A program made the position numbers and the translations under genes. From IMG/VR virus record IMGVR_UViG_2872180393_000009: a stretch of DNA of 9,064 bases; one strand, 5' to 3'. The DNA is from a virus (Duplodnaviria > Heunggongvirae > Uroviricota > Caudoviricetes). The notes under the pieces are model-generated. The model saw nothing but the letters and a program-made list of their open reading frames with translations, was not told the origin of the DNA and did no database searches. This document shows positions 1 to 9,064 of the stretch, one piece after another (position 1 is the stretch's first letter; each line of letters opens with the position of its first letter).

Positions 1-303
1 TTAACGCGTATTTTTCAGCGACTCCTGTGCAAAATACGCTGTTGCTTTTTTTAATATATCTCGCTCAAGGCGAGCTTCATTTAACGCCTTACGCAGTTGC
101 AGAATTTCAGATTCCAGTTCAGCCACCGTGCGGGAACCAGGAGTACCGAGCCCTTTTCTGGCGGCGGTAACCCATTGTCCTAAAGTGTCTTCAGGAAGGG
201 ATAATCGGGAAGCGCCTTCACTGATCGAAAGTTGATTTTCAAGAACCGTTCTGACAGCTTCGGCTTTGAACTCTTTAGAGTAACGTTGGGTTTTTCTGCT
301 CAT
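1..303 (-). CDS. IS600 OrfA (IS3-family transposase N-terminal HTH protein)
   Basis: 100-aa ORF beginning MSRKTQRYSKEFKAEAV, which I recognise as IS600 OrfA. A good AGGAG Shine-Dalgarno lies upstream on the minus strand (reverse complement of 310-314). Confidence 0.9.
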   Translation of the reverse strand: MSRKTQRYSKEFKAEAVRTVLENQLSISEGASRLSLPEDTLGQWVTAARKGLGTPGSRTVAELESEILQLRKALNEARLERDILKKATAYFAQESLKNTR

Positions 304-367
304 TATTAGCTCCTTCTGATGCCATTCTATTTCAGGAAGGAGTGTCCGTTAAACTCAGGCTACCTCA
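1..367 (-). mobile_element. IS600 (IS3 family), partial copy in inverted orientation; left inverted repeat ends at 367, rest of element lies beyond the window start
   Basis: Positions 301-367 are the reverse complement of 6768-6834 (left end and orfA start of the complete copy) with one mismatch. The orfA product is identical to the 6832-7134 product except one residue (D vs G). Confidence 0.85.
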
Positions 368-600
368 ACGAAGTTGGCGTTCAGTTTGGCAGCGCGGCTG
401 AAATGGCTATTTTGCAGGAAATTATCAACGCCAGGTACGAAAGTATCTTGCCCACCATTCTGATCAGTAACCTCTCACCGGAAGAGTTGTGGGCGTTCAT
501 CAGTCCCCGAATTGCCGACAGGATCACAGACGGGGGACGCAACTGGTTGTCGTTTAACTGGCCCAGTTACCGTTCTCGTATCAGAGGTGTGGCTGCATGA
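368..600 (+). pseudogene. DnaC-like helicase loader, C-terminal remnant (about 77 codons) truncated at its 5' side by the IS600 end
   Basis: Translation NEVGVQ...LSFNWPSYRSRIRGVAA matches the C-terminus of E. coli DnaC (DEIGVQ...FNWDSYRSRVTGKEY, recalled from memory). The ORF is only open upstream because it runs into the IS inverted repeat. The stop overlaps the next gene's start (ATGA, 597-600). Confidence 0.75.
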
Positions 601-1826
601 CAACTCCAGTATGGCGTAACGATGACCTTGAAGGCGCTGTCATCGGCGCGTTCTTTCTGCGCGGAGCAGATCCTGAAGTGATGGATATTCTGGCCACACT
701 ACCGGCGGACGTTTTTTCTGTACGACCGTACCGGGATATCTACACAGGCATCTGCAGACAGGCCCGTGTGTCCGGCGTGATTGATCCTGTGCTGTTGTGC
801 AATGAGATGCCAGAACTTGCCCCGGTGATTACTGATACCGGGCGTAAAACCTGGGTGAAGTCATCTCTGGAACACTATGTTGCAGCACTGCGACGCAATG
901 CCGCACTGCGTGATGCAGAAAAAACACTGAACGAGGCATTACAGAAATTACGCGATGCGCATACCTGTGAAGCAGCTGAAGATGCTCTTAAGGATGCACA
1001 GAACATGATGGCCTCATTGTCGACGGAAAAGGGCGTTATTCAGTCGGTACATATTGATGATGTGCTTCCGGAGGTGGTTGAGCGTGTTGAATGCCGGAAT
1101 CAGGGACTGGAGAAATCCAGGACGTTGATGACCGGTATTGATGAACTGGACGCAAAAACAGGCGGCATGGAGCCCGGCGACCTGGTATTTATTGCGGCTC
1201 GTCCTTCGATGGGGAAAACCGAACTTGCGCTGGACATCATCGACAAGGTGACTGAGCAGGGGCATGGTGTGCTTCTGTTCACCATGGAGATGGCGAACAT
1301 CCAGATTGGTGAACGTATGGTGTCTGAGGCTGGAGGGATGCCAGTATCACGCCTGAAATCTGTGGCTCACTTTGAAGATGAAGACTGGGCGCGTTTCTCA
1401 CAAGGGGTGGGGCGGATGACCGGGCGCAATATCTGGATGGTGGACCAGGCGAACCTGACCATTGATGAGATATGCGCAACAACGAAACACCATCTGATTA
1501 AACATCCGGAAACGGCGCTGGTGGTGGTTGATTATCTCGGGCTGAAAAATTCCGGAGAAATAGAGGCGGATGCAGACATCATTCTGATGCTTTACAGGGA
1601 TGAAGTGTACAACCCGGATACACAGGCCACAGGCATAGCAGAAATTAATATCACGAAACAACGTAACGGTTCTCTGGGGACGATTTACCGGCGTTTTTAT
1701 AACGGACATTTTCTGCCTGTGGACCAGGAAAGCGCACAGGTTCTTTCCACCCCAATGCGGCAGCCCCAGCCGCGCAGATACAGCAATACACGTACCGACA
1801 GCAGTAAGATGGAGCGTTTCTTTTGA
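597..1826 (+). CDS. DnaB-family replicative helicase (prophage-encoded), apparently lacking the H3/H4 motif region
   Basis: 409-aa ORF with Walker A AARPSMGKT, Walker B-like VVVDYL and the conserved EDEDWAR, LYRDEVY and GIAEI..KQRNG blocks found in E. coli DnaB. About 50 residues between DYL and EIEADAD seem to be absent relative to DnaB. Confidence 0.85.
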   Translation: MTTPVWRNDDLEGAVIGAFFLRGADPEVMDILATLPADVFSVRPYRDIYTGICRQARVSGVIDPVLLCNEMPELAPVITDTGRKTWVKSSLEHYVAALRRNAALRDAEKTLNEALQKLRDAHTCEAAEDALKDAQNMMASLSTEKGVIQSVHIDDVLPEVVERVECRNQGLEKSRTLMTGIDELDAKTGGMEPGDLVFIAARPSMGKTELALDIIDKVTEQGHGVLLFTMEMANIQIGERMVSEAGGMPVSRLKSVAHFEDEDWARFSQGVGRMTGRNIWMVDQANLTIDEICATTKHHLIKHPETALVVVDYLGLKNSGEIEADADIILMLYRDEVYNPDTQATGIAEINITKQRNGSLGTIYRRFYNGHFLPVDQESAQVLSTPMRQPQPRRYSNTRTDSSKMERFF

Positions 1827-1837
1827 ACAACCAGACA

Positions 1838-2080
1838 ATGACTTTTACCCCTGAACAATTGCGTAAACACGCGCAGGAAATGTTGCGACAGGCGGAACAA
1901 CTGGAAAAAACAGGTGTAACAAAAGATGCCATTCGTCGGGATATGGTGCCAGCGCTCAGGGAACTGATGCAGGCGAAACATCGCGCACAAAAAGCGGTGG
2001 ATGAGCTCGTTGATTGTGTGGCAGAGCTGGAAACCAAAGTTGGAAAGTTTGAAAAAATGGTGCAGGAGGTGCTGCGCTGA
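1838..2080 (+). CDS. Hypothetical small phage protein (about 80 aa, charged, probably helical), nin-region position
   Basis: ORF MTFTPEQLRKHAQEMLRQAEQLEK..., tightly packed between the helicase stop (1824-1826) and the rusA start (TGATG overlap at 2078-2082). No clear Shine-Dalgarno; start could instead be TTG at 1823. No family recognised. Confidence 0.5.
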   Translation: MTFTPEQLRKHAQEMLRQAEQLEKTGVTKDAIRRDMVPALRELMQAKHRAQKAVDELVDCVAELETKVGKFEKMVQEVLR

Positions 2081-2451
2081 TGCGCCATGAGTTTATTTTA
2101 CCTTATCCGCCGACGGTGAATACTTACTGGCGACGTCGTGGCTGCACATATTTTGTATCAAAAGTTGGTGAGCGTTATCGCCGTGATGTGACGCTAATTG
2201 TTCGCCAGCAGCGGCTGAAATTAAACCTGTCCGGAAGGCTGGCGATAAAGATTATTGCAGAGCCACCGGATAAGCGCCGTCGTGACCTGGACAATATCCT
2301 GAAAGCACCACTGGATGCGCTGACGCATGCCGGACTACTCATAGACGACGAGCAGTTTGATGAAATCAATATTGTGCGCGGTCAGCTCGTTCTTGGTGGG
2401 CGACTGGGCGTGAAGATTTACGAAATCACAGGTGATAACGATGGCGCGTGA
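2080..2451 (+). CDS. rusA: RusA-family Holliday junction resolvase
   Basis: 123-aa ORF with [10 protein letters not shown], matching the RusA catalytic region (PDRRRRDLDN in E. coli RusA, from memory). Typical position between replication genes and Q in lambdoid phages. Confidence 0.9.
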
Positions 2452-2827
2452 TATTCAGCAGGTTATGGAACGGTGGGGGGCTTGGGCTGCAAACACTCAT
2501 GAAGATGTATCCTGGGCGTCGATCGCTGCTGGTTTTAAAGGGTTAATTCCGTCGAAAGTGAAATCACGCCCTCAGTGTTCTGATGATGATGCAATGATAA
2601 TTTGTGGCTGTATGGCCCGGTTGAACAAGAAAAATCAGGATTTGCACGATTTGCTGGTGGATTATTACGTAGGTGGAATGACTTTTATGAGTCTGGCACG
2701 GAAACATGGGTGTTCGGATACCTGTATTGGCAAGCGCCTGCAGAAAGCGGAAGGGGTTATTGATGGCATGTTGATGATGCTTGATATCAGGCTGGAGATG
2801 GACAGATACGTAGAACGAATTATGTAG
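2441..2827 (+). CDS. Q: Late-gene antiterminator Q (short QuuD/DLP12-type family)
   Basis: Translation [23 protein letters not shown]...[18 protein letters not shown]...[23 protein letters not shown] resembles my recollection of the ~127-aa DLP12 QuuD antiterminator. ATG at 2441 overlaps the rusA stop by 11 nt; the ORF track's GTG at 2432 is less likely. Confidence 0.8.
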
Positions 2828-2831
2828 GTGC

Positions 2832-2861
2832 TTGACCAGACACATTGTCCGGGGCTATATT
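2832..2861 (+). promoter_or_regulatory. Candidate late promoter pR' (sigma70-like TTGACC-N17/18-CTATAT/TATATT)
   Basis: TTGACC at 2832-2837 and a TATAAT-like hexamer at 2855-2861, starting 5 nt after the Q stop codon, the canonical location of pR' in lambdoid phages. Confidence 0.4.
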
Positions 2862-2922
2862 CCTCACGCGCCAGCAAAATCTGGCGTCGGGATTGGAACC
2901 CCGGATAGAGACCGCGACAGAC

Positions 2923-2945
2923 ACACGCCGCGAGCGTGTTTTTTA
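2923..2945 (+). terminator. Candidate tR'-like intrinsic terminator
   Basis: 6-bp stem ACACGC/GCGTGT (2923-2928 / 2934-2939) with a 5-nt loop, followed by a T-run (2939-2945), about 60-80 nt downstream of the candidate pR'. Confidence 0.4.
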
Positions 2946-3307
2946 TTGTCGTATGCACGCGCACATCTGAATTATGGTGGGGCGCATGGGGGAGCTGAAA
3001 AGCTCGCCGGTCGGTTTCCCGGTAGTTCCAACCCTGTGCGTCTCACCACCCGATGATTGGAACCTGACGGTGTTGACAGTTTCAGGTTTGCAGTTTACAT
3101 TTCCCCGCGGTGCTCAAAACACCTCGAAAGCGGTATCCACACCCGATAGCCATGTGGTTTTTTTGTGTCCAGAATTCTTGGTTTATGACCGGGTGTGCGG
3201 CTAATACAATACCAGCAATGGAAATACGCCCGCCGACTTTCGACGGTTTTGAGCGCCCGGTCACCCTCTCAAAAGGGGTAAATCAAAATATTCGAAAGGA
3301 CATGTCT

Positions 3308-3871
3308 ATGAATCGCACGTCTATTGAAAAACTCCCGTCACTTACGCATAACCATCTTCCTGTCATGACAACAGAGCTGCTGGCTGATTTGTACGGAACA
3401 GAGCGCCAGCGTTTGACAAACAATTTCAATCGAAACAAAGAACGGTTTATAGAAGGTAAACATTTTTTCCTGATAGAAGGTGATGCGTTACGAGAGTTGA
3501 AGAACGAAAACTCTTTAAGAGTTTCTGTGAAAATTGCCCGTAACGTTCGCTCCCTCATCCTCTGGACAGAACGTGGCGCAGCCCGTCACGCCAAAATGCT
3601 CGAAACCGATCAGGCGTGGGAAGTGTTCGAAAAACTGGAAGACTGTTATTTCAACCAGAAACAGCCACCAGCGGCACAAAACACATCTATCGAAAATGAT
3701 GGATGCGCATTACTGAGCCACTTCGATAAACACGGTCAGGTTGAGTTCACGGAAAAGGTACCCGCCGATGCGATGGTATGTACTCTGGAACGGTTTAAAT
3801 TTTATCTGGAGCAACACGGGTGGATCGTTGCCCGTAAAGAGCAACTGGTGGAGCGGTTGATGCGGTTTTAA
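3308..3871 (+). CDS. ORF6N-domain (antirepressor-like DNA-binding) protein with an uncharacterised C-terminal half
   Basis: ATG at 3308 has AAGGA 7 nt upstream. The N-terminal segment PVMTTELLADLYGTERQRLTNNFNRNKERFIEGKHFF...WTERGAARHAKMLETDQAWEVF fits my recollection of the ORF6N domain consensus. The ORF track's upstream extension from 3110 has no RBS and non-protein-like composition. Confidence 0.6.
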   Translation: MNRTSIEKLPSLTHNHLPVMTTELLADLYGTERQRLTNNFNRNKERFIEGKHFFLIEGDALRELKNENSLRVSVKIARNVRSLILWTERGAARHAKMLETDQAWEVFEKLEDCYFNQKQPPAAQNTSIENDGCALLSHFDKHGQVEFTEKVPADAMVCTLERFKFYLEQHGWIVARKEQLVERLMRF

Positions 3872-3984
3872 AAATTTTTTCCGAAAACTTTACGATCGTA
3901 AAAAGTTGAATATCCTGTTAAGAGTGGTTACTACGCCACACAGAAACGGCACAGGACGTTAAACGTGCTGGTGGTCAGATGAGT

Positions 3985-4013
3985 TTGCAGATGTGATGAC
4001 ATATGGTTATTAT
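3985..4013 (+). promoter_or_regulatory. Candidate sigma70 promoter for the tRNA array (TTGCAG-N17-TATTAT)
   Basis: TTGCAG at 3985-3990 and TATTAT at 4008-4013 with a 17-nt spacer, about 10 nt upstream of the first tRNA 5' end. Confidence 0.35.
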
Positions 4014-4022
4014 TCTGCCTCC

Positions 4023-4099
4023 GGCCCTTTAGCTCAGTTGGTCAGAGCGAGCGACTCATAATCGCCAGGTCGCTGGTTCAAGTCCAGCAAGGGCCACCA
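4023..4099 (+). tRNA. tRNA with CAU anticodon, most likely tRNA-Ile2 (ileX/ileZ-like) rather than tRNA-Met
   Basis: Cloverleaf read by eye: acceptor GGCCCTT/AAGGGCC, D-arm AGCTCAGTTGG, anticodon loop CTCATAA, T-arm GGTTCAAGTCC, 3' CCA encoded. Close to E. coli ileX as I recall it, including C4-G69 and C5-G68. Confidence 0.85.
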
Positions 4100-4100
4100 A

Positions 4101-4177
4101 CCACCACTAGCTCATCCGGATAGAGCATCAACCTTCTAAGTTGACGGTGCGAGGTTCGAGTCCTCGGTGGTGGGCCA
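4101..4177 (+). tRNA. tRNA-Arg (anticodon UCU, decodes AGA)
   Basis: Acceptor CCACCAC/GTGGTGG (unusual C1-G72), D-arm TAGCTCATCCGGATAGAGC, anticodon loop CTTCTAA, T-arm GAGGTTCGAGTCCTC, encoded CCA. Starts 1 nt after the previous tRNA. Confidence 0.8.
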
Positions 4178-4179
4178 GC

Positions 4180-4255
<76 letters not shown>

Positions 4256-4258
4256 TAT

Positions 4259-4333
<75 letters not shown>

Positions 4334-4946
4334 GCGAGATTTGAGACGAAGGTTGTTATTTGCACTGACACAATATTGTGTGGGAATGTCTGACTCCTTA
4401 CCATCTCCTGTTCTGTGATGTTGTTTTGTTGCAGTTCCAGTGCTCTTTTTTCAGCACCAGAATGGTGCATTGTCGGTCAGGTTACGTAGTGAACCTCTGG
4501 CAGGGGACTGATGATTCATCATTCTGGTGTTGTAAATATCTCTTCGGACAACTTACAAAATATTCTAAGCAAACCCCGGGAACACACTCTTAACTGCCTT
4601 GGTTGGCGGTTTTTTGTACAGTGCTCGGTATGTGTGAGCTGGAAATCAGATTTTGCATGGACTGGAATCATGCTGTTATTTAGGGGCGAAGAACTGGCTT
4701 TTTCTTCCGCCTTCTCACCAGTAATGATTAGAAAAATAATGAAATGCCCCCTCCGGGGAGGAGGACCGTAGAAAAAAGGACCCGCCAGCAAAAACATTGG
4801 GGATGAACAGCTTTCGCTACTCAGATTGCTGGCGGGTAAAGTTCCTCATGAATTAAGAATGCTACGCGATCTTTTTTAATGGAAATGAAAATTATTGTCA
4901 ATTAGACGTGCGTGTTTTTTCATACAATATTGGTAAAGGTGATTCA

Positions 4947-4980
4947 GGCCATCAGAGTTTTGCTGATGGCCTTTTTTCTT
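4947..4980 (+). terminator. Strong rho-independent terminator upstream of the holin gene
   Basis: Perfect 9-bp stem GGCCATCAG/CTGATGGCC (4947-4955 / 4963-4971), 7-nt loop, followed by TTTTTTCTT (4972-4980). Confidence 0.6.
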
Positions 4981-5013
4981 TCCGATAGCACAGGTCTGTC
5001 GGGGGGGCGGGAT

Positions 5014-5229
5014 ATGTATCAGATGGAAAAAATATCAACAGGCATTGCCTACGGCACCTCCGCCGGCAGTGCCGGCTACTGGTTTTTGCAGTGGTTGGAT
5101 CAGGTCAGTCCGTCACAGTGGGCTGCGATTGGTGTGCTGGGAAGTCTGCTTCTGGGGCTTCTGACTTATCTGACGAATCTGTATTTCAAAATAAGAGAAG
5201 ATAAGCGTAAGGCTGCGAGAGGTGAATAA
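5014..5229 (+). CDS. S: Class II holin / pinholin, phage 21 S-like, with dual-start motif (Met1 at 5014, Met4 at 5023)
   Basis: 71-aa product [71 protein letters not shown] is near-identical to my recollection of phage 21 S. G-rich Shine-Dalgarno-like stretch upstream; stop overlaps the endolysin start (TAATG). Confidence 0.85.
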
Positions 5230-5726
5230 TGTCGCCATCATTACGCAAGGCTGTTGCAGTTGCTATTGGTGGCGGGGCTGTTGCTATAGCATCTGTGTTA
5301 ATCACTGGCCCAGGTGGTAACGATGGTCTGGAAGGTGTCAGCTACATACCATACAAAGATATCATTGGTGTATGGACTGTATGTCACGGACACACCGGAA
5401 AAGACATCATGCCTGGTAAAACGTATACCGAAGCAGAATGCAAAGCTCTCCTGAATAAAGACCTTGCCACTGTCGCCAGACAAATTAACCCGTACATCAA
5501 AGTCGATATACCGGAAACAACGCGCGGCGCTCTTTACTCGTTCGTTTACAACGTGGGCGCTGGCAATTTCAGAACATCGACGCTTCTTCGCAAAATAAAC
5601 CAGGGCGATATCAAAGGCGCATGTGACCAGCTACGTCGCTGGACATATGCTGGCGGTAAGCAATGGAAAGGGCTGATGACCCGTCGTGAGATTGAGCGTG
5701 AAGTCTGTTTGTGGGGGCTGCAATGA
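5229..5726 (+). CDS. R: SAR (signal-anchor-release) endolysin, phage 21 R-like lysozyme
   Basis: 165-aa product with an N-terminal Gly/Ala-rich SAR helix ([20 protein letters not shown]) and a T4-lysozyme-like catalytic region ([22 protein letters not shown]). Near-identical to phage 21 R as recalled. Confidence 0.9.
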
Positions 5727-6187
5727 GCAGAGTCACCGCGATTATCTCCGCTCTGGTTATCTGCATCATCGTCTGCCTGTCATGGGCTGTTAATCATTAC
5801 CGTGATAACGCCATTACCTACAAAGAGCAGCGCGACAAAAACGCAAGAGAACTGAAGCTGGCGAACGCAACCATTACTGACATGCAGCAGAGACAGCGTG
5901 ATGTTAATGCACTCGATGCTAAATACACGAAGGAGTTAGCTGATGCGAAAGCTGAAAATGAAACTCTGCGCGCTGATGTTGCCGCTGGTCGTCGTCGGTT
6001 GCACATCAAAGCAGTCTGTCAGTCAGTGCGTGAAGCCACCACCGCCTCCGGCGTGGATAATGCAACCAGCCCCCGACTGGCAGACACCGCTGAACGGGAT
6101 TATTTCACCCTCAGAGAGCGGCTGATGACGATGCAGATGCAACTGGAAGGGGCACAGGAGTATATCCGCACTCAGTGCATTAAGTAG
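5723..6187 (+). CDS. Rz: Rz i-spanin (inner membrane spanin subunit)
   Basis: [34 protein letters not shown]... is highly similar to lambda Rz as recalled. ATG at 5723 overlaps the endolysin stop (ATGA). Confidence 0.9.
5943..6125 (+). CDS. Rz1: Rz1 o-spanin (outer membrane lipoprotein), embedded in the +1 frame of Rz
   Basis: 60-aa [45 protein letters not shown]... with lipobox VVGC and a proline-rich segment, similar to lambda Rz1 as recalled. Confidence 0.85.
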
Positions 6188-6229
6188 CCTTTTTATCGTG
6201 GTAAACATTTCGCAGGGTATGAGGTATTT

Positions 6230-6580
6230 ATGCCATCACTAATCCCACGTGCCTGCCGTAAGCGTGGATGTGCAGGTACAACCACAGACAGTTCGGGTTA
6301 CTGCGATAAACATCGCGGTGAAGGCTGGGTGCAGCACCAGCGCGGACTGAGCCGCCACCAGCGTGGCTATGGCTCAAAATGGACGGTGATTCGTGCCCGT
6401 ATTCTGAAGCGCGATAAAGGTCTGTGTCAGTTGTGTCTGCGTGTCGGTGTGGTGAGCGAGGCGAAAACCGTCGACCACATCATCCCGAAAGCGCATGGCG
6501 GAACAGACGCAGACAGCAACCTGCAGAGTCTGTGCTGGCCCTGCCATAAAGCGAAAACAGCGCGCGAACGAATCAGGTGA
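6230..6580 (+). CDS. HNH endonuclease (phage packaging-associated type)
   Basis: 116-aa ORF with Cys pairs (CRKRGC, CQLC, CWPC) and the HNH core DHIIPKAHGGTDADSNLQSLCWPCH. GAGG Shine-Dalgarno 5 nt upstream. Sits just before the putative cos/terS region as in HK97-like phages. Confidence 0.8.
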   Translation: MPSLIPRACRKRGCAGTTTDSSGYCDKHRGEGWVQHQRGLSRHQRGYGSKWTVIRARILKRDKGLCQLCLRVGVVSEAKTVDHIIPKAHGGTDADSNLQSLCWPCHKAKTARERIR

Positions 6581-6602
6581 TAATTATTCTCACTTGTAGG
6601 GA

Positions 6603-6651
6603 GGGGCGGGGCAAATCCCTGTGACCTGACGTCTTCCGGACTGCCCGCCCC
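6603..6651. repeat. GC-rich dyad GGGGCGGG ... CCCGCCCC with 33-nt spacer; candidate cos/packaging recognition element
   Basis: 8-bp perfect inverted repeat at 6603-6610 and 6644-6651, located between the HNH gene and the terS start. Assignment as cos is positional inference only. Confidence 0.3.
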
Positions 6652-6695
6652 GTCAAATTTTTACACCCGCGAAATTAAAAATTTCAGGATTTGAC

Positions 6696-6767
6696 ATGTC
6701 AGGAAAATCTGTTGCACCCGGAAGGGGAAGAAAGCCGAAGCCGACTACCCGTAAGGAGCTGGCAGGC
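6696..6767 (+). pseudogene. Terminase small subunit (P27-family-like) N-terminal 24 codons, truncated by the IS600 insertion
   Basis: ATG at 6696 encodes MSGKSVAPGRGRKPKPTTRKELAG, ending exactly at the IS600 left inverted repeat, whose first triplet TGA gives an immediate stop. The GRGRKPKPT motif is typical of P27-type TerS N-termini as recalled. Confidence 0.5.
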
Positions 6768-6831
6768 TGAGGTAGCCTGAGTTTAACGGACACTCCTTCC
6801 TGAAATAGAATGGCATCAGAAGAAGCTAATA

Positions 6832-7134
6832 ATGAGCAGAAAAACCCAACGTTACTCTAAAGAGTTCAAAGCCGAAGCTGTCAGAACGGTTCTTGAAAAT
6901 CAACTTTCGATCAGTGAAGGCGCTTCCCGATTATCCCTTCCTGAAGGCACTTTAGGACAATGGGTTACCGCCGCCAGAAAAGGGCTCGGTACTCCTGGTT
7001 CCCGCACGGTGGCTGAACTGGAATCTGAAATTCTGCAACTGCGTAAGGCGTTAAATGAAGCTCGCCTTGAGCGAGATATATTAAAAAAAGCAACAGCGTA
7101 TTTTGCACAGGAGTCGCTGAAAAATACGCGTTAA
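6832..7134 (+). CDS. IS600 OrfA
   Basis: 100-aa ORF MSRKTQRYSKEFKAEAVRTVLENQLSISEGASRLSLPEG..., with an HTH-like N-terminus and a leucine-zipper-like C-terminus typical of IS3-family OrfA. Confidence 0.9.
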   Translation: MSRKTQRYSKEFKAEAVRTVLENQLSISEGASRLSLPEGTLGQWVTAARKGLGTPGSRTVAELESEILQLRKALNEARLERDILKKATAYFAQESLKNTR

Positions 7135-7169
7135 TCGAACAATGGCGACAACAATTTCCCATTGAAGCG

Positions 7170-7988
7170 ATGTGTCAGGTATTTGGTGTATCCAGGAGCG
7201 GTTATTACAACCGGGTACAGCATGAACCCTCAGACAGAAAACAAAGTGATGAGCGGCTAAAACTGGAGATTAAGGTGGCACATATCCGCACTCGCGAAAC
7301 ATATGGAACCCGGCGGCTCCAGACGGAGCTGGCAGAGAATGGCATCATCGTTGGTCGTGACCGACTGGCACGTCTTCGTAAGGAGCTAAGGCTACGCTGT
7401 AAGCAGAAACGCAAGTTCAGAGCGACTACGAACCCGAACCACAATCTGCCAGTTGCGCCAAATCTGCTGAACCAGACGTTCGCTCCTACAGCACCAAATC
7501 AGGTCTGGGTGGCGGACCTGACGTATGTTGCCACACAGGAGGGATGGTTGTACCTCGCTGGCATCAAAGATGTTTATACGTGCGAAATTGTCGGCTACGC
7601 CATGGGAGAGCGCATGACAAAAGAGCTGACAGGTAAAGCCCTGTTTATGGCGCTCAGGAGCCAGCGCCCACCTGCCGGGCTAATCCACCACTCTGATCGA
7701 GGTTCACAGTACTGCGCATACGATTACCGGGTCATACAGGAGCAGTTTGGTCTGAAAACATCAATGTCGCGTAAAGGTAACTGTTACGACAACGCTCCGA
7801 TGGAAAGCTTCTGGGGAACGCTGAAAAATGAGAGCCTGAGCCACTATCGTTTTAATAACCGGGATGAAGCCATCTCAGTAATACGGGAATACATTGAGAT
7901 TTTCTACAATCGTCAGCGTCGTCACTCTCGTCTGGGGAATATCTCCCCGGCAGCCTTCAGGGAAAAATATCATCAGATGGCTGCTTAA
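7170..7988 (+). CDS. IS600 OrfB (transposase catalytic DDE domain), normally expressed as an OrfAB fusion by -1 frameshifting
   Basis: 272-aa ORF containing DDE-region motifs (WVADLTYV, HHSDRGSQY, CYDNAPMESFWGTLKNE). The orfB frame is open upstream from the A AAA AAA G slippery run at 7083-7090 inside orfA. Confidence 0.9.
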   Translation: MCQVFGVSRSGYYNRVQHEPSDRKQSDERLKLEIKVAHIRTRETYGTRRLQTELAENGIIVGRDRLARLRKELRLRCKQKRKFRATTNPNHNLPVAPNLLNQTFAPTAPNQVWVADLTYVATQEGWLYLAGIKDVYTCEIVGYAMGERMTKELTGKALFMALRSQRPPAGLIHHSDRGSQYCAYDYRVIQEQFGLKTSMSRKGNCYDNAPMESFWGTLKNESLSHYRFNNRDEAISVIREYIEIFYNRQRRHSRLGNISPAAFREKYHQMAA

Positions 7989-8098
7989 AAAAAGAACAAA
8001 TGGTAGTATCCGCTATTGCCAGTACACCTCAAAGGGGTTCATGTATTAAAAGTCGACGGAGTTAAAGAACGTTGGGTCGACTTAATGGAGATTTCAAA

Positions 8099-9064
8099 AT
8101 GGGCAAGAAAGAACAAGGATCATTACCTCTCCCAAGAGGAGTAACTATTCGTCAATACAAGAATTGCTCTACATTAGTTGTAACCTTCACATATAAAGGG
8201 GTTCTTTGCAGAGAACCCTTACCAAGGCTGGAAGCTAACGCAAAGGGGATTAAGTATGCAGAGCGACTTCTCGGAGAAATAAAAAACCAAATCTGTGATG
8301 ATTCATTCGATTTTTCAAAATACTTTCCAAACTCCAGGAAGTTAGCATTATTTGGAATGGTAAAGAAGAATAAAAGTGTGAGAGATTACCTAGATGAATA
8401 TCTGGAAATTTGCAAAAACAGAAAGTTATCTCCTTCAACAATAAATGGATATGAAAAATGCGTATCTGCATTATCGGAACTACATAAGCTACATGTCGTT
8501 GACCTGACACCAGCAATATTAAAAAAATGGATTTCAAGAAGAACAACAAAACTTAAGACCATAAGAAACAATCTGTCATTTTTAAGAAGCGCAGTAGATG
8601 AAGCGGTCACTGACGGACTTATAACGATAAATCCTGTAAAACTGGTTAGTGCAAGTAGATACCATGCGGTTAACCATACAGCCAATGCTGATGATTATGA
8701 AGTGGATCCCTTCACGCCAGCAGAGGCAACAGCTATCTACAACGCCTGTCTCTATCAGGAATGGAGAAATCTTTTTTGTTTCGCATTCAATACAGGCCTT
8801 CGAAGCTCAGAATTATGTGCATTGCGTTGGTCTGATATTGATTTTATTGGGCATACCGTTCACGTACAGGTCGCTTCTGTCGTTGGTGTAATAAAAGGAA
8901 CCAAAACAAAAGCAGGGACCAGAAAAGTTGAATTAAACAATGAAGCCATAATGGCATTGCAGTCCCAGAAATCATTTACGATGATGAGAAGTGATTTTGT
9001 ATTCAGTGATCCAAAAACACGCAAGCCGTGGGCTAATTCAGCTGCGATTCGCAAGAAAGCCTGA
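8099..9064 (+). CDS. int: Tyrosine recombinase / phage integrase, probably C-terminally truncated (likely pseudogene)
   Basis: ATG at 8099 with GGAG 8 nt upstream. N-terminal arm-binding-like segment (LPRGVTIRQY...TFTYKGVLCREPLP), box I arginine (FNTGLRSSELCALRWSDIDF) and the KGTKTKAGTRKVEL hairpin are present. The ORF stops 17 aa after FVFSDP, before the expected HxxR and catalytic Tyr. AT-rich relative to the rest of the window. Confidence 0.7.
   Translation: MGKKEQGSLPLPRGVTIRQYKNCSTLVVTFTYKGVLCREPLPRLEANAKGIKYAERLLGEIKNQICDDSFDFSKYFPNSRKLALFGMVKKNKSVRDYLDEYLEICKNRKLSPSTINGYEKCVSALSELHKLHVVDLTPAILKKWISRRTTKLKTIRNNLSFLRSAVDEAVTDGLITINPVKLVSASRYHAVNHTANADDYEVDPFTPAEATAIYNACLYQEWRNLFCFAFNTGLRSSELCALRWSDIDFIGHTVHVQVASVVGVIKGTKTKAGTRKVELNNEAIMALQSQKSFTMMRSDFVFSDPKTRKPWANSAAIRKKA

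Follow-up and report, generated by a model that had tools for sequence, protein, structure and literature searches.

A lambdoid prophage remnant at ssrA in Shigella boydii has very probably been reshuffled by recombination among IS600 copies. The junction at which a truncated terminase small subunit gene (terS) meets IS600 beside an integrase gene is thereby best read as an inversion product, and not as what a deletion from terS to the integrase left behind. The window (the whole 9,064-nt stretch of DNA analysed) is part of the S. boydii chromosome CP026846.1. Features lie on its plus strand unless stated otherwise.

The terS gene, probably of the P27 family, is represented by a 24-codon 5' fragment (6696-6767) that ends at the left inverted repeat (IRL) of the right-hand IS600 copy. 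The open reading frame translates as MSGKSVAPGRGRKPKPTTRKELAG, with the stop codon contributed by the IS end, and 22 of its 24 residues are identical to WP_001297663.1. It matches base for base the 5' end of the E. coli 700481 gene annotated as 'phage terminase small subunit P27 family'. From the HNH endonuclease gene into terS (6230-6767), the window shares 95.7% identity with an E. coli prophage region over 538 nt, and homology ends exactly at 6767/6768. Intact terS reads AATCCCGGCAAGCG... past this breakpoint. With 24 of 156 codons left, only residues 1-24 are present and the Terminase_4 domain (PF05119) is absent. The TerS protein cluster contains the phage P27 protein CAC83553.1. The first-pass annotation had described a terS-like frame starting at 6696 and cut after 24 codons by IS600, and both the residue match and the point where homology stops agree with it.

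The right IS600 is complete (6768-8031, 1264 bp), with its IRL (TGAGGTAGCCTG...) joined to terS and its right inverted repeat (IRR; reverse complement TGAGGTGTACTG...) joined to a remnant of the excisionase gene (xis). The terminal repeats are imperfect, TGAGGT...ACCTCA (TG...CA), and the element shares 99.1-99.6% identity with features that RefSeq names 'IS3-like element IS600 family transposase'. orfA (6832-7134, 100 aa, Pfam HTH_Tnp_1) and orfB (272 aa, ending at 7988, Pfam rve) lie in frames 0 and -1, and 7083-7090 is an A7G slippery run; other IS600 copies are annotated as a 385-aa programmed-frameshift product. The flanking triplets differ, GGC at 6765-6767 and AAG at 8032-8034, so that the 3-bp duplication is absent. 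Three simple IS600 insertions served as controls: one in a dnaB-like gene of E. coli FDAARGOS_944 (ATG duplication), one in locus L038 (GTC) and one in cas3 of the source genome CP026846.1 (AAT). Since all three, delimited in the same way, carry 3-bp duplications, the IS ends are defined correctly and the missing duplication is meaningful. The ends and triplets recorded in the first-pass annotation are thus correct, and the lack of a duplication marks this copy as a recombinant and not as a different element. In a polymorphism comparison of 14 IS600 copies, single-base differences were mostly private and the crossover point was not visible.

A second IS600 copy, on the minus strand, is cut by the left edge of the window (1-367, with orfA at 1-303 and the IRL end at 367). 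In the source genome it is full-length (1264 bp, source locus L003, 1006-2269), inverted with respect to the right copy and 99.6% identical to it (five differences). On its inner side it abuts the final ~77 codons of a dnaC-like gene. Its outer flank, beyond the window, is the 3' two-thirds of the chromosomal gene ygcN, followed by ygcO, ygcP and further genes. In IS orientation, the flanks are CGT on the dnaC side and GTG on the ygcN side, again without a duplication. The four flank triplets of the two copies (GGC, AAG, CGT and GTG) all mismatch, which indicates that the four joints represent four different insertion events. A look-up of the left-copy OrfA allele gave a match to one unrelated contig only.

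The pairing of these joints varies among S. boydii genomes. In CP026846.1 and CP119446.1, the joints are ygcN'(GTG)-IS-(CGT)dnaC' and terS'(GGC)-IS-(AAG)'xis. In three sister genomes (CP026845.1, JARKNR010000001.1 and CP026877.1), the locus runs ygcN', IS600, a 6.4-kb fragment, IS600 and 'xis-int-attR-ypjA. There the fragment, which extends from dnaC' to terS', is reversed at 99.2-99.7% identity, and the joints are ygcN'(GTG)-IS-(GGC)terS' and dnaC'(CGT)-IS-(AAG)'xis. All four IS-end/flank joints are sequence-identical between the two isomers; the pairing alone differs. Because the joints are re-paired between genomes, the window junction is read as a flip isomer generated by recombination between inverted 1.26-kb repeats, and such an inversion accounts for the missing duplication without a deletion at the terS junction. 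The first-pass annotation had attributed the missing duplication to a secondary event, an 'IS-mediated deletion or rearrangement', and not to plain insertion. The re-paired joints uphold the secondary event and its second form, rearrangement by inversion between inverted IS600 copies, but not a deletion at this junction.

The proposed history begins with independent insertion of IS600 into at least five targets, which would have been terS, the dnaC-like gene, xis, chromosomal ygcN and a vasL-like T6SS gene. Homologous recombination among these 1.26-kb repeats would then have reshuffled the region. Earlier, directly repeated IS600 copies in dnaC and xis probably recombined, with loss of the intervening immunity and early region; ygcN and vasL may also have taken part in large inversions. 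The 6.4-kb dnaC'-terS' fragment would in this way have become bracketed by two inverted IS600 copies with their IRL ends inward. Recombination between the bracketing copies would flip the fragment, placing terS' against the int-side IS in the window isomer, and terS' against the ygcN-side IS with dnaC' against the int-side IS in the sister isomer. The terS'-IS-ygcN' joint of the latter would need one or more inversions through the IS600 in ygcN. Each IS600 would be a hybrid whose flanks come from different original insertions, hence the absence of 3-bp duplications.

Several observations bear on these steps. IS600 runs in the direction of terS and likewise in that of xis, two genes that face opposite ways in the canonical prophage. 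In K-12, ygcN is found 116 kb clockwise of ypjA and shares the orientation of ssrA. The IS600 orientations are those needed for the proposed exchanges. A predicted chimera of YgcN residues 1-136 followed by 'VR' (from the IS IRL) has an exact match in the protein collection, and its gene is located in the same genome at a distance of ~140 kb, on the strand opposite to that of ygcN 3'. At that position, near amiC-argA-recD, a third hybrid IS600 joins ygcN 5' to vasL', the 3' part of the vasL-like gene, whose closest intact E. coli allele is 98.9% identical. If they were relocated rather than lost, the model would place the terS 3' part and the structural genes beside vasL 5' and the T6SS genes, some 50 kb leftward of the window. 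None of the reciprocal joints (IRR-GGC-terS 3', xis 5'-AAG-IRL and IRR-CGT-dnaC 5') was found in the ~60 kb of S. boydii sequence examined.

Within this history, the window isomer would be the derived one. A nonsense codon in the integrase gene (W322*) and a 54-codon deletion in dnaB occur only with the window orientation, a covariation that weakly suggests derivation. On parsimony only, the sister isomer is taken as ancestral, since its orientation is canonical, its integrase is intact and its dnaB lacks the deletion. The opposite polarity would make the window arrangement the older one, formed by an inversion between the terS and xis IS600 copies and then one between the dnaC and ygcN copies, with the sisters as the derived flip. 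On a geometry argument, the IS orientations also fit this two-inversion path, and the number of steps to each isomer is equal. Still, it is unlikely, because the lineage it treats as ancestral has the derived characters W322* and the dnaB deletion, the canonical int/late-gene orientation is held by the sister isomer, and the predicted ygcN 5'-IS-dnaC 5' joint is contradicted by ygcN 5', which is actually joined to vasL'.

Inversion is likewise preferred to deletion when the right flank is considered. Homology to an annotated E. coli xis-int prophage pair (94.8% identity) starts exactly at 8032, inside the excisionase gene. The 113-nt xis 3' remnant (8032-8144, ~37 codons), defined by alignment to the E. 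coli FHI_NMBU_11 excisionase/integrase, overlaps the integrase start and includes all 67 nt between IS600 and the integrase ATG at 8099. The tyrosine integrase itself (8099-9064; Pfam Arm-DNA-bind_2 and Phage_integrase, PF00589) is a pseudogene with a G+C content of 38.9%, versus 50% in the phage fragment. Its TGG>TGA change at codon 322 (9062-9064) drops the C-terminal 68 residues, which hold the RHTF, GH and RHY tyrosine region of the 390-aa intact relative. The catalytic set of the truncated product is incomplete, as Arg II, the His and the nucleophilic Tyr are missing. An intact 390-aa allele is present in CP026845.1, JARKNR010000001.1 and CP026877.1. Past W322*, the frame stays open beyond the window. 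A 26-nt copy of the ssrA 3' end (GGGTTCAACTCCCACCAGCTCCACCA, one mismatch to ssrA) lies 150 nt past the integrase frame. This copy (attR) is followed by the native ssrA-ypjA intergenic region and then by ypjA, which in CP026846.1 is split by an IS110-family element. The right flank, comprising the xis remnant, int, the ssrA-type attR and ypjA, is the native end of an ssrA-integrated lambdoid prophage.

An integrase in its native ssrA context is in its proper place, and nothing was 'replaced' there. The first-pass annotation had rightly noted an AT-rich integrase gene downstream of the IS, with no terS continuation, terL or head genes. Its further step, that a deletion at the junction swapped the structural genes for this integrase, is contradicted by the native int/xis/attR/ypjA order and by the reversed fragment in the sister genomes. 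The comparison with intact related prophages that it recommended is also informative. E. coli FHI_NMBU_11 carries a related intact prophage at ssrA, with int/xis at the far end and antiparallel to the late genes, and from such a prophage the order terS-IS-xis-int cannot be obtained by one within-prophage deletion.

A single IS600 deletion, either adjacent to the element or between direct copies, would have run from terS to the int end and removed the terS 3' part, terL and the head and tail genes. Such an event would fit the absence of a 3-bp duplication, as well as the fact that the 10 kb to each side of the junction contain no continuation of terS, no terL and no head genes. It would also fit the gene order of intact relatives, in which the HNH endonuclease gene, terS, terL, a 60-aa ORF, portal, protease and capsid follow one another, so that the structural genes come after terS. 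It is nevertheless very unlikely, given that int/xis of the canonical prophage are at the other end from terS and on the other strand, that the sister genomes have dnaC' and not terS' beside the int-side IS, with the fragment reversed, and that the xis-int-attR-ypjA side is in its native context.

The fate of the missing packaging genes was followed in several collections. The HNH gene (6230-6580; Pfam HNH and HNH_5) is the usual upstream partner of P27/HK97-type terminases. The window matches the phage P27/HK97-type packaging module in this gene and in the first 24 terS codons; beyond those 24 of 156 codons, the rest of the module is missing from the locus. Nor does the ~60 kb of S. boydii sequence examined contain the 3' part of terS, terL or any head and tail genes. 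Among TerS homologues and cluster members, all proteins were intact, frameshifted or partial at a contig end, and none was fused to IS600; a TerL look-up (P0186) returned intact E. coli prophages only, with no fusion or fragment. An exact-pattern scan of a genome contig collection for IRR-GGC-AATCCCGGC, the terS 3' joint, gave no match. A control scan of the same collection for the window's own junction was also empty, which implies that the lineage is not in that collection and makes the negative for the terS 3' joint uninformative. Neither junction occurs in any of 5,426 complete E. coli genomes, which were queried with junction-spanning sequences. The description of a non-packaging prophage remnant, made in the first-pass annotation, is borne out by the truncated terS and by the absence of the rest of the packaging module from the locus.

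Other Shigella-like chromosomes carry the fragment in their ssrA/ypjA region at 99.2-99.75% identity over window positions 1542-6674, without this IS600 pair. Judged from these alignments, its position there supports an ssrA-prophage origin of the fragment. On the 3' side of the fragment, these chromosomes continue with terS, intact but of a different allele, then terL and a portal gene interrupted by IS4. A mosaic breakpoint lies just upstream of terS in them, and orthology of the packaging end across lineages is not strict.

The two isomers could in principle reflect a frequently flipping reversible switch in populations, in which the orientations of the 6.4-kb Q-sRNA-tRNA-lysis cassette would differ in late-gene, tRNA and sRNA expression. 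The chance of this appears slight. If true, it would amount to IS-based phase variation of a domesticated prophage module instead of a fixed neutral scar. A site-specific invertible segment of the Hin/Gin/Pin type was considered separately and rejected, as the repeats are whole 1264-bp IS600 copies and no invertase gene is found within or beside the segment. Segments bounded by inverted repeats are also a classic source of orientation errors, and the segment between the 1.26-kb repeats might have been mis-resolved in one set of assemblies. An artefact of this kind is hardly credible here, because each orientation occurs in at least two independent complete assemblies (two for the window isomer and three for the sister isomer) and covaries with the independent differences W322* and the dnaB deletion. 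Finally, a composite transposon, in which two IS600 copies moved the intervening 6.4-kb Q-tRNA-lysis cassette into the site, would suit the two complete inverted copies that flank the fragment, yet it can practically be dismissed, as the outer flanks (GTG and AAG) differ and belong to ygcN and xis, the fragment occupies one and the same locus in every S. boydii genome examined, and a near-identical fragment lies at ssrA/ypjA in other Shigella-like chromosomes without the IS pair.

The inverted fragment retains much of a lambdoid late region, while its replication genes are damaged. The dnaC-like gene (IstB-type ATPase) is reduced by the left IS600 to a 3' fragment of ~77 codons (368-600). Window positions 365-957 are 98.7% identical to locus L012 5998-6590, where an intact 'ATP-binding protein' CDS spans 5355-6233. 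The DnaB-like replicative helicase gene (597-1826, 409 aa, Pfam DnaB_C), named 'replicative DNA helicase [Shigella boydii]' in the source, carries its in-frame 54-codon deletion in the C-terminal ATPase domain, according to a global alignment with a 463-aa orthologue from locus L016; the BLAST segments on its two sides share 8 nt at 1542-1549. Between 1823 and 2827 lie an 85-aa frame from the ORF list, a RusA resolvase gene (2080-2451, Pfam RusA) and a Q-type antiterminator gene (2441-2827, Pfam Phage_antitermQ). Pfam searches were run on the called genes of the source locus L003. Absent from the first-pass annotation were the IS600 copy at the left edge, the remnant of xis, the nonsense codon in the integrase gene and the deletion in dnaB.

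Downstream of Q, a small-RNA and antirepressor module (2855-3871) contains four Rfam matches above the gathering score, c4-a1b1 (2855-2907), isrK (2868-2944), C4 antisense RNA (2970-3053) and sRNA-Xcc1 (3187-3270), followed by a gene for an ORF6N-domain protein (3308-3871, Pfam ORF6N). A phage-borne tRNA cluster (4023-4333; ARAGORN and Rfam) has the anticodons CAT, TCT (Arg), TGT (Thr) and TCC (Gly) and corresponds to locus L003 5925-6235 in the ARAGORN run. The lysis cassette (5014-6187) consists of genes for a holin (5014-5229, Pfam Phage_holin_2_1), a lysozyme (5229-5726, Pfam Phage_lysozyme) and Rz (5723-6187, Pfam Phage_lysis), with Rz1 (5943-6125) embedded in Rz. All of its ORFs are intact, and their lengths equal those in related loci. 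At the sequence level, the Q, holin, lysozyme and Rz/Rz1 frames, the four tRNA genes and the C4/isrK-type small-RNA and ORF6N module are therefore intact. The dnaC, dnaB, xis, int and terS genes are truncated or damaged, and the early promoters, the repressor/immunity region and the 5' part of dnaC are lost from the remnant. The lysis competence proposed in the first-pass annotation is putative. On its gene content, the prophage remnant is heavily degraded and is predicted to be unable to excise, replicate or package.

IS600 is one of five ISs expanded in all Shigella (PMC7373316; PMC8072062), and recombination between IS copies is the accepted cause of the many inversions and deletions in the genus (PMC7373316; PMC8072062). 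Inverted copies give rise to inversions and direct copies to deletions (Yang et al., 2005, cited in PMC7373316; PMC8072062; PMC7373316). IS-associated inversions and defective prophages are both frequent in Shigella (PMC8072062; PMC7373316; PMC7819885). For example, 42 IS-associated inversions of 700 bp to 400 kb are reported among genomes of S. dysenteriae type 1 (SD1), whose defective Stx prophage is a non-inducible, IS600-associated lambdoid remnant with most structural genes missing (PMC7819885). The window remnant resembles that prophage in being lambdoid and IS600-associated with most structural genes gone. They differ in locus, sapC/ychK for the Stx prophage and ssrA for the remnant, and in cargo: the former carries stx, whereas in the window the stretch from the tRNA cluster to the holin gene is free of toxin genes.

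The finding is a local instance of known, routine IS-driven prophage decay in S. boydii. Closely related Shigella strains differ by chromosomal IS inversions, as here, without an essential difference; the present case is one small inversion polymorphism (~7.7 kb with the ISs) inside a prophage remnant. No description of this S. boydii polymorphism was found in the literature searched, and a literature search on the accession found nothing. Mild novelty lies solely in the two orientations that the fragment takes across sequenced strains of S. boydii. To the genomics of this species, the finding contributes a small inversion polymorphism, located at the ssrA prophage remnant, by which lineages can be told apart; its importance beyond annotation is slight. 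As a worked example, the locus illustrates that the lack of a target duplication around an IS copy should be taken as the mark of a recombination hybrid, and that the gene beside a hybrid IS tells nothing about what was deleted there. The cryptic lambdoid prophages DLP12, Rac and Qin of E. coli K-12 are likewise grounded, keeping Q, holin, lysozyme and Rz frames after the loss of replication, immunity or morphogenesis functions. Compared with them, the window remnant has decayed mainly through IS600 recombination and has two orientation isomers.

The homologous prophage remnant in loci of other Shigella-like chromosomes (L015-L023) is bounded by other insertion sequences. In these loci, codon 459 of ypjA is linked to the dnaB region through an IS3-family element, and the portal gene is interrupted by IS4. 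Because their right flank varies, carrying either bamE-recN-nadK or raiA-pheA, the comparison indicates that the ssrA locus has undergone additional independent rearrangements in these chromosomes. The autotransporter gene ypjA is also disrupted in the source genome, where it lies 3' of the window (11494-17520 of the source locus, L003) and is split by an IS110-family element into a 1389-aa N-terminal and a 139-aa C-terminal piece. Elsewhere on this chromosome (CP026846.1, ~4.03 Mb), positions 10410-11673 of locus L044 are occupied by a third hybrid IS600, a copy whose flanks stem from different original insertions. On one side lies the 5' part of ygcN, on the other the 3' portion of a T6SS gene that resembles vasL; this joint adjoins amiC-argA-recD. 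The hexamer GTCTGT happens to occur in both flanks. At the same locus, a simple insertion of IS600 in cas3 is flanked by an AAT duplication.

Two prophage genes in the window are themselves altered. Relative to 463-aa orthologues, the dnaB-like gene (window 597-1826) lacks 54 codons (162 nt), deleted in frame from the C-terminal ATPase domain, only in genomes that share the window orientation. At the deletion site (window ~1542-1549), the two BLAST segments have 8 nt in common, which suggests that the deletion arose between short direct repeats. The integrase carries a single TGG>TGA nonsense mutation at codon 322 (window 9062-9064), yielding a 321-aa product. The reading frame 3' of this stop shows no other damage, and sister S. 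boydii genomes retain a 390-aa allele.

Rfam matches above the gathering score (c4-a1b1, isrK, C4 antisense RNA, and sRNA-Xcc1; window 2855-3270) immediately precede an antirepressor-like ORF6N-domain gene (window 3308-3871). Together they look like a P1/Gifsy-type antisense-RNA/antirepressor module, immediately 3' of Q. Four clustered phage-borne tRNA genes (anticodons CAT, TCT, TGT, and TCC; window 4023-4333) lie between the antirepressor-like and holin genes. In Stx phages, tRNAs and stx occupy this interval, whereas the tRNAs of the window prophage are accompanied by no toxin genes there.

In HK97/P27-type phages, cos is located between HNH and terS. In the corresponding interval (window 6600-6675), a T run comes after an inverted repeat that is rich in G+C (GGGGCGGGGCA...TGCCCGCCCC). 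Directly after this element, related prophages change over to different terS alleles, with a mosaic breakpoint near window 6652-6674.
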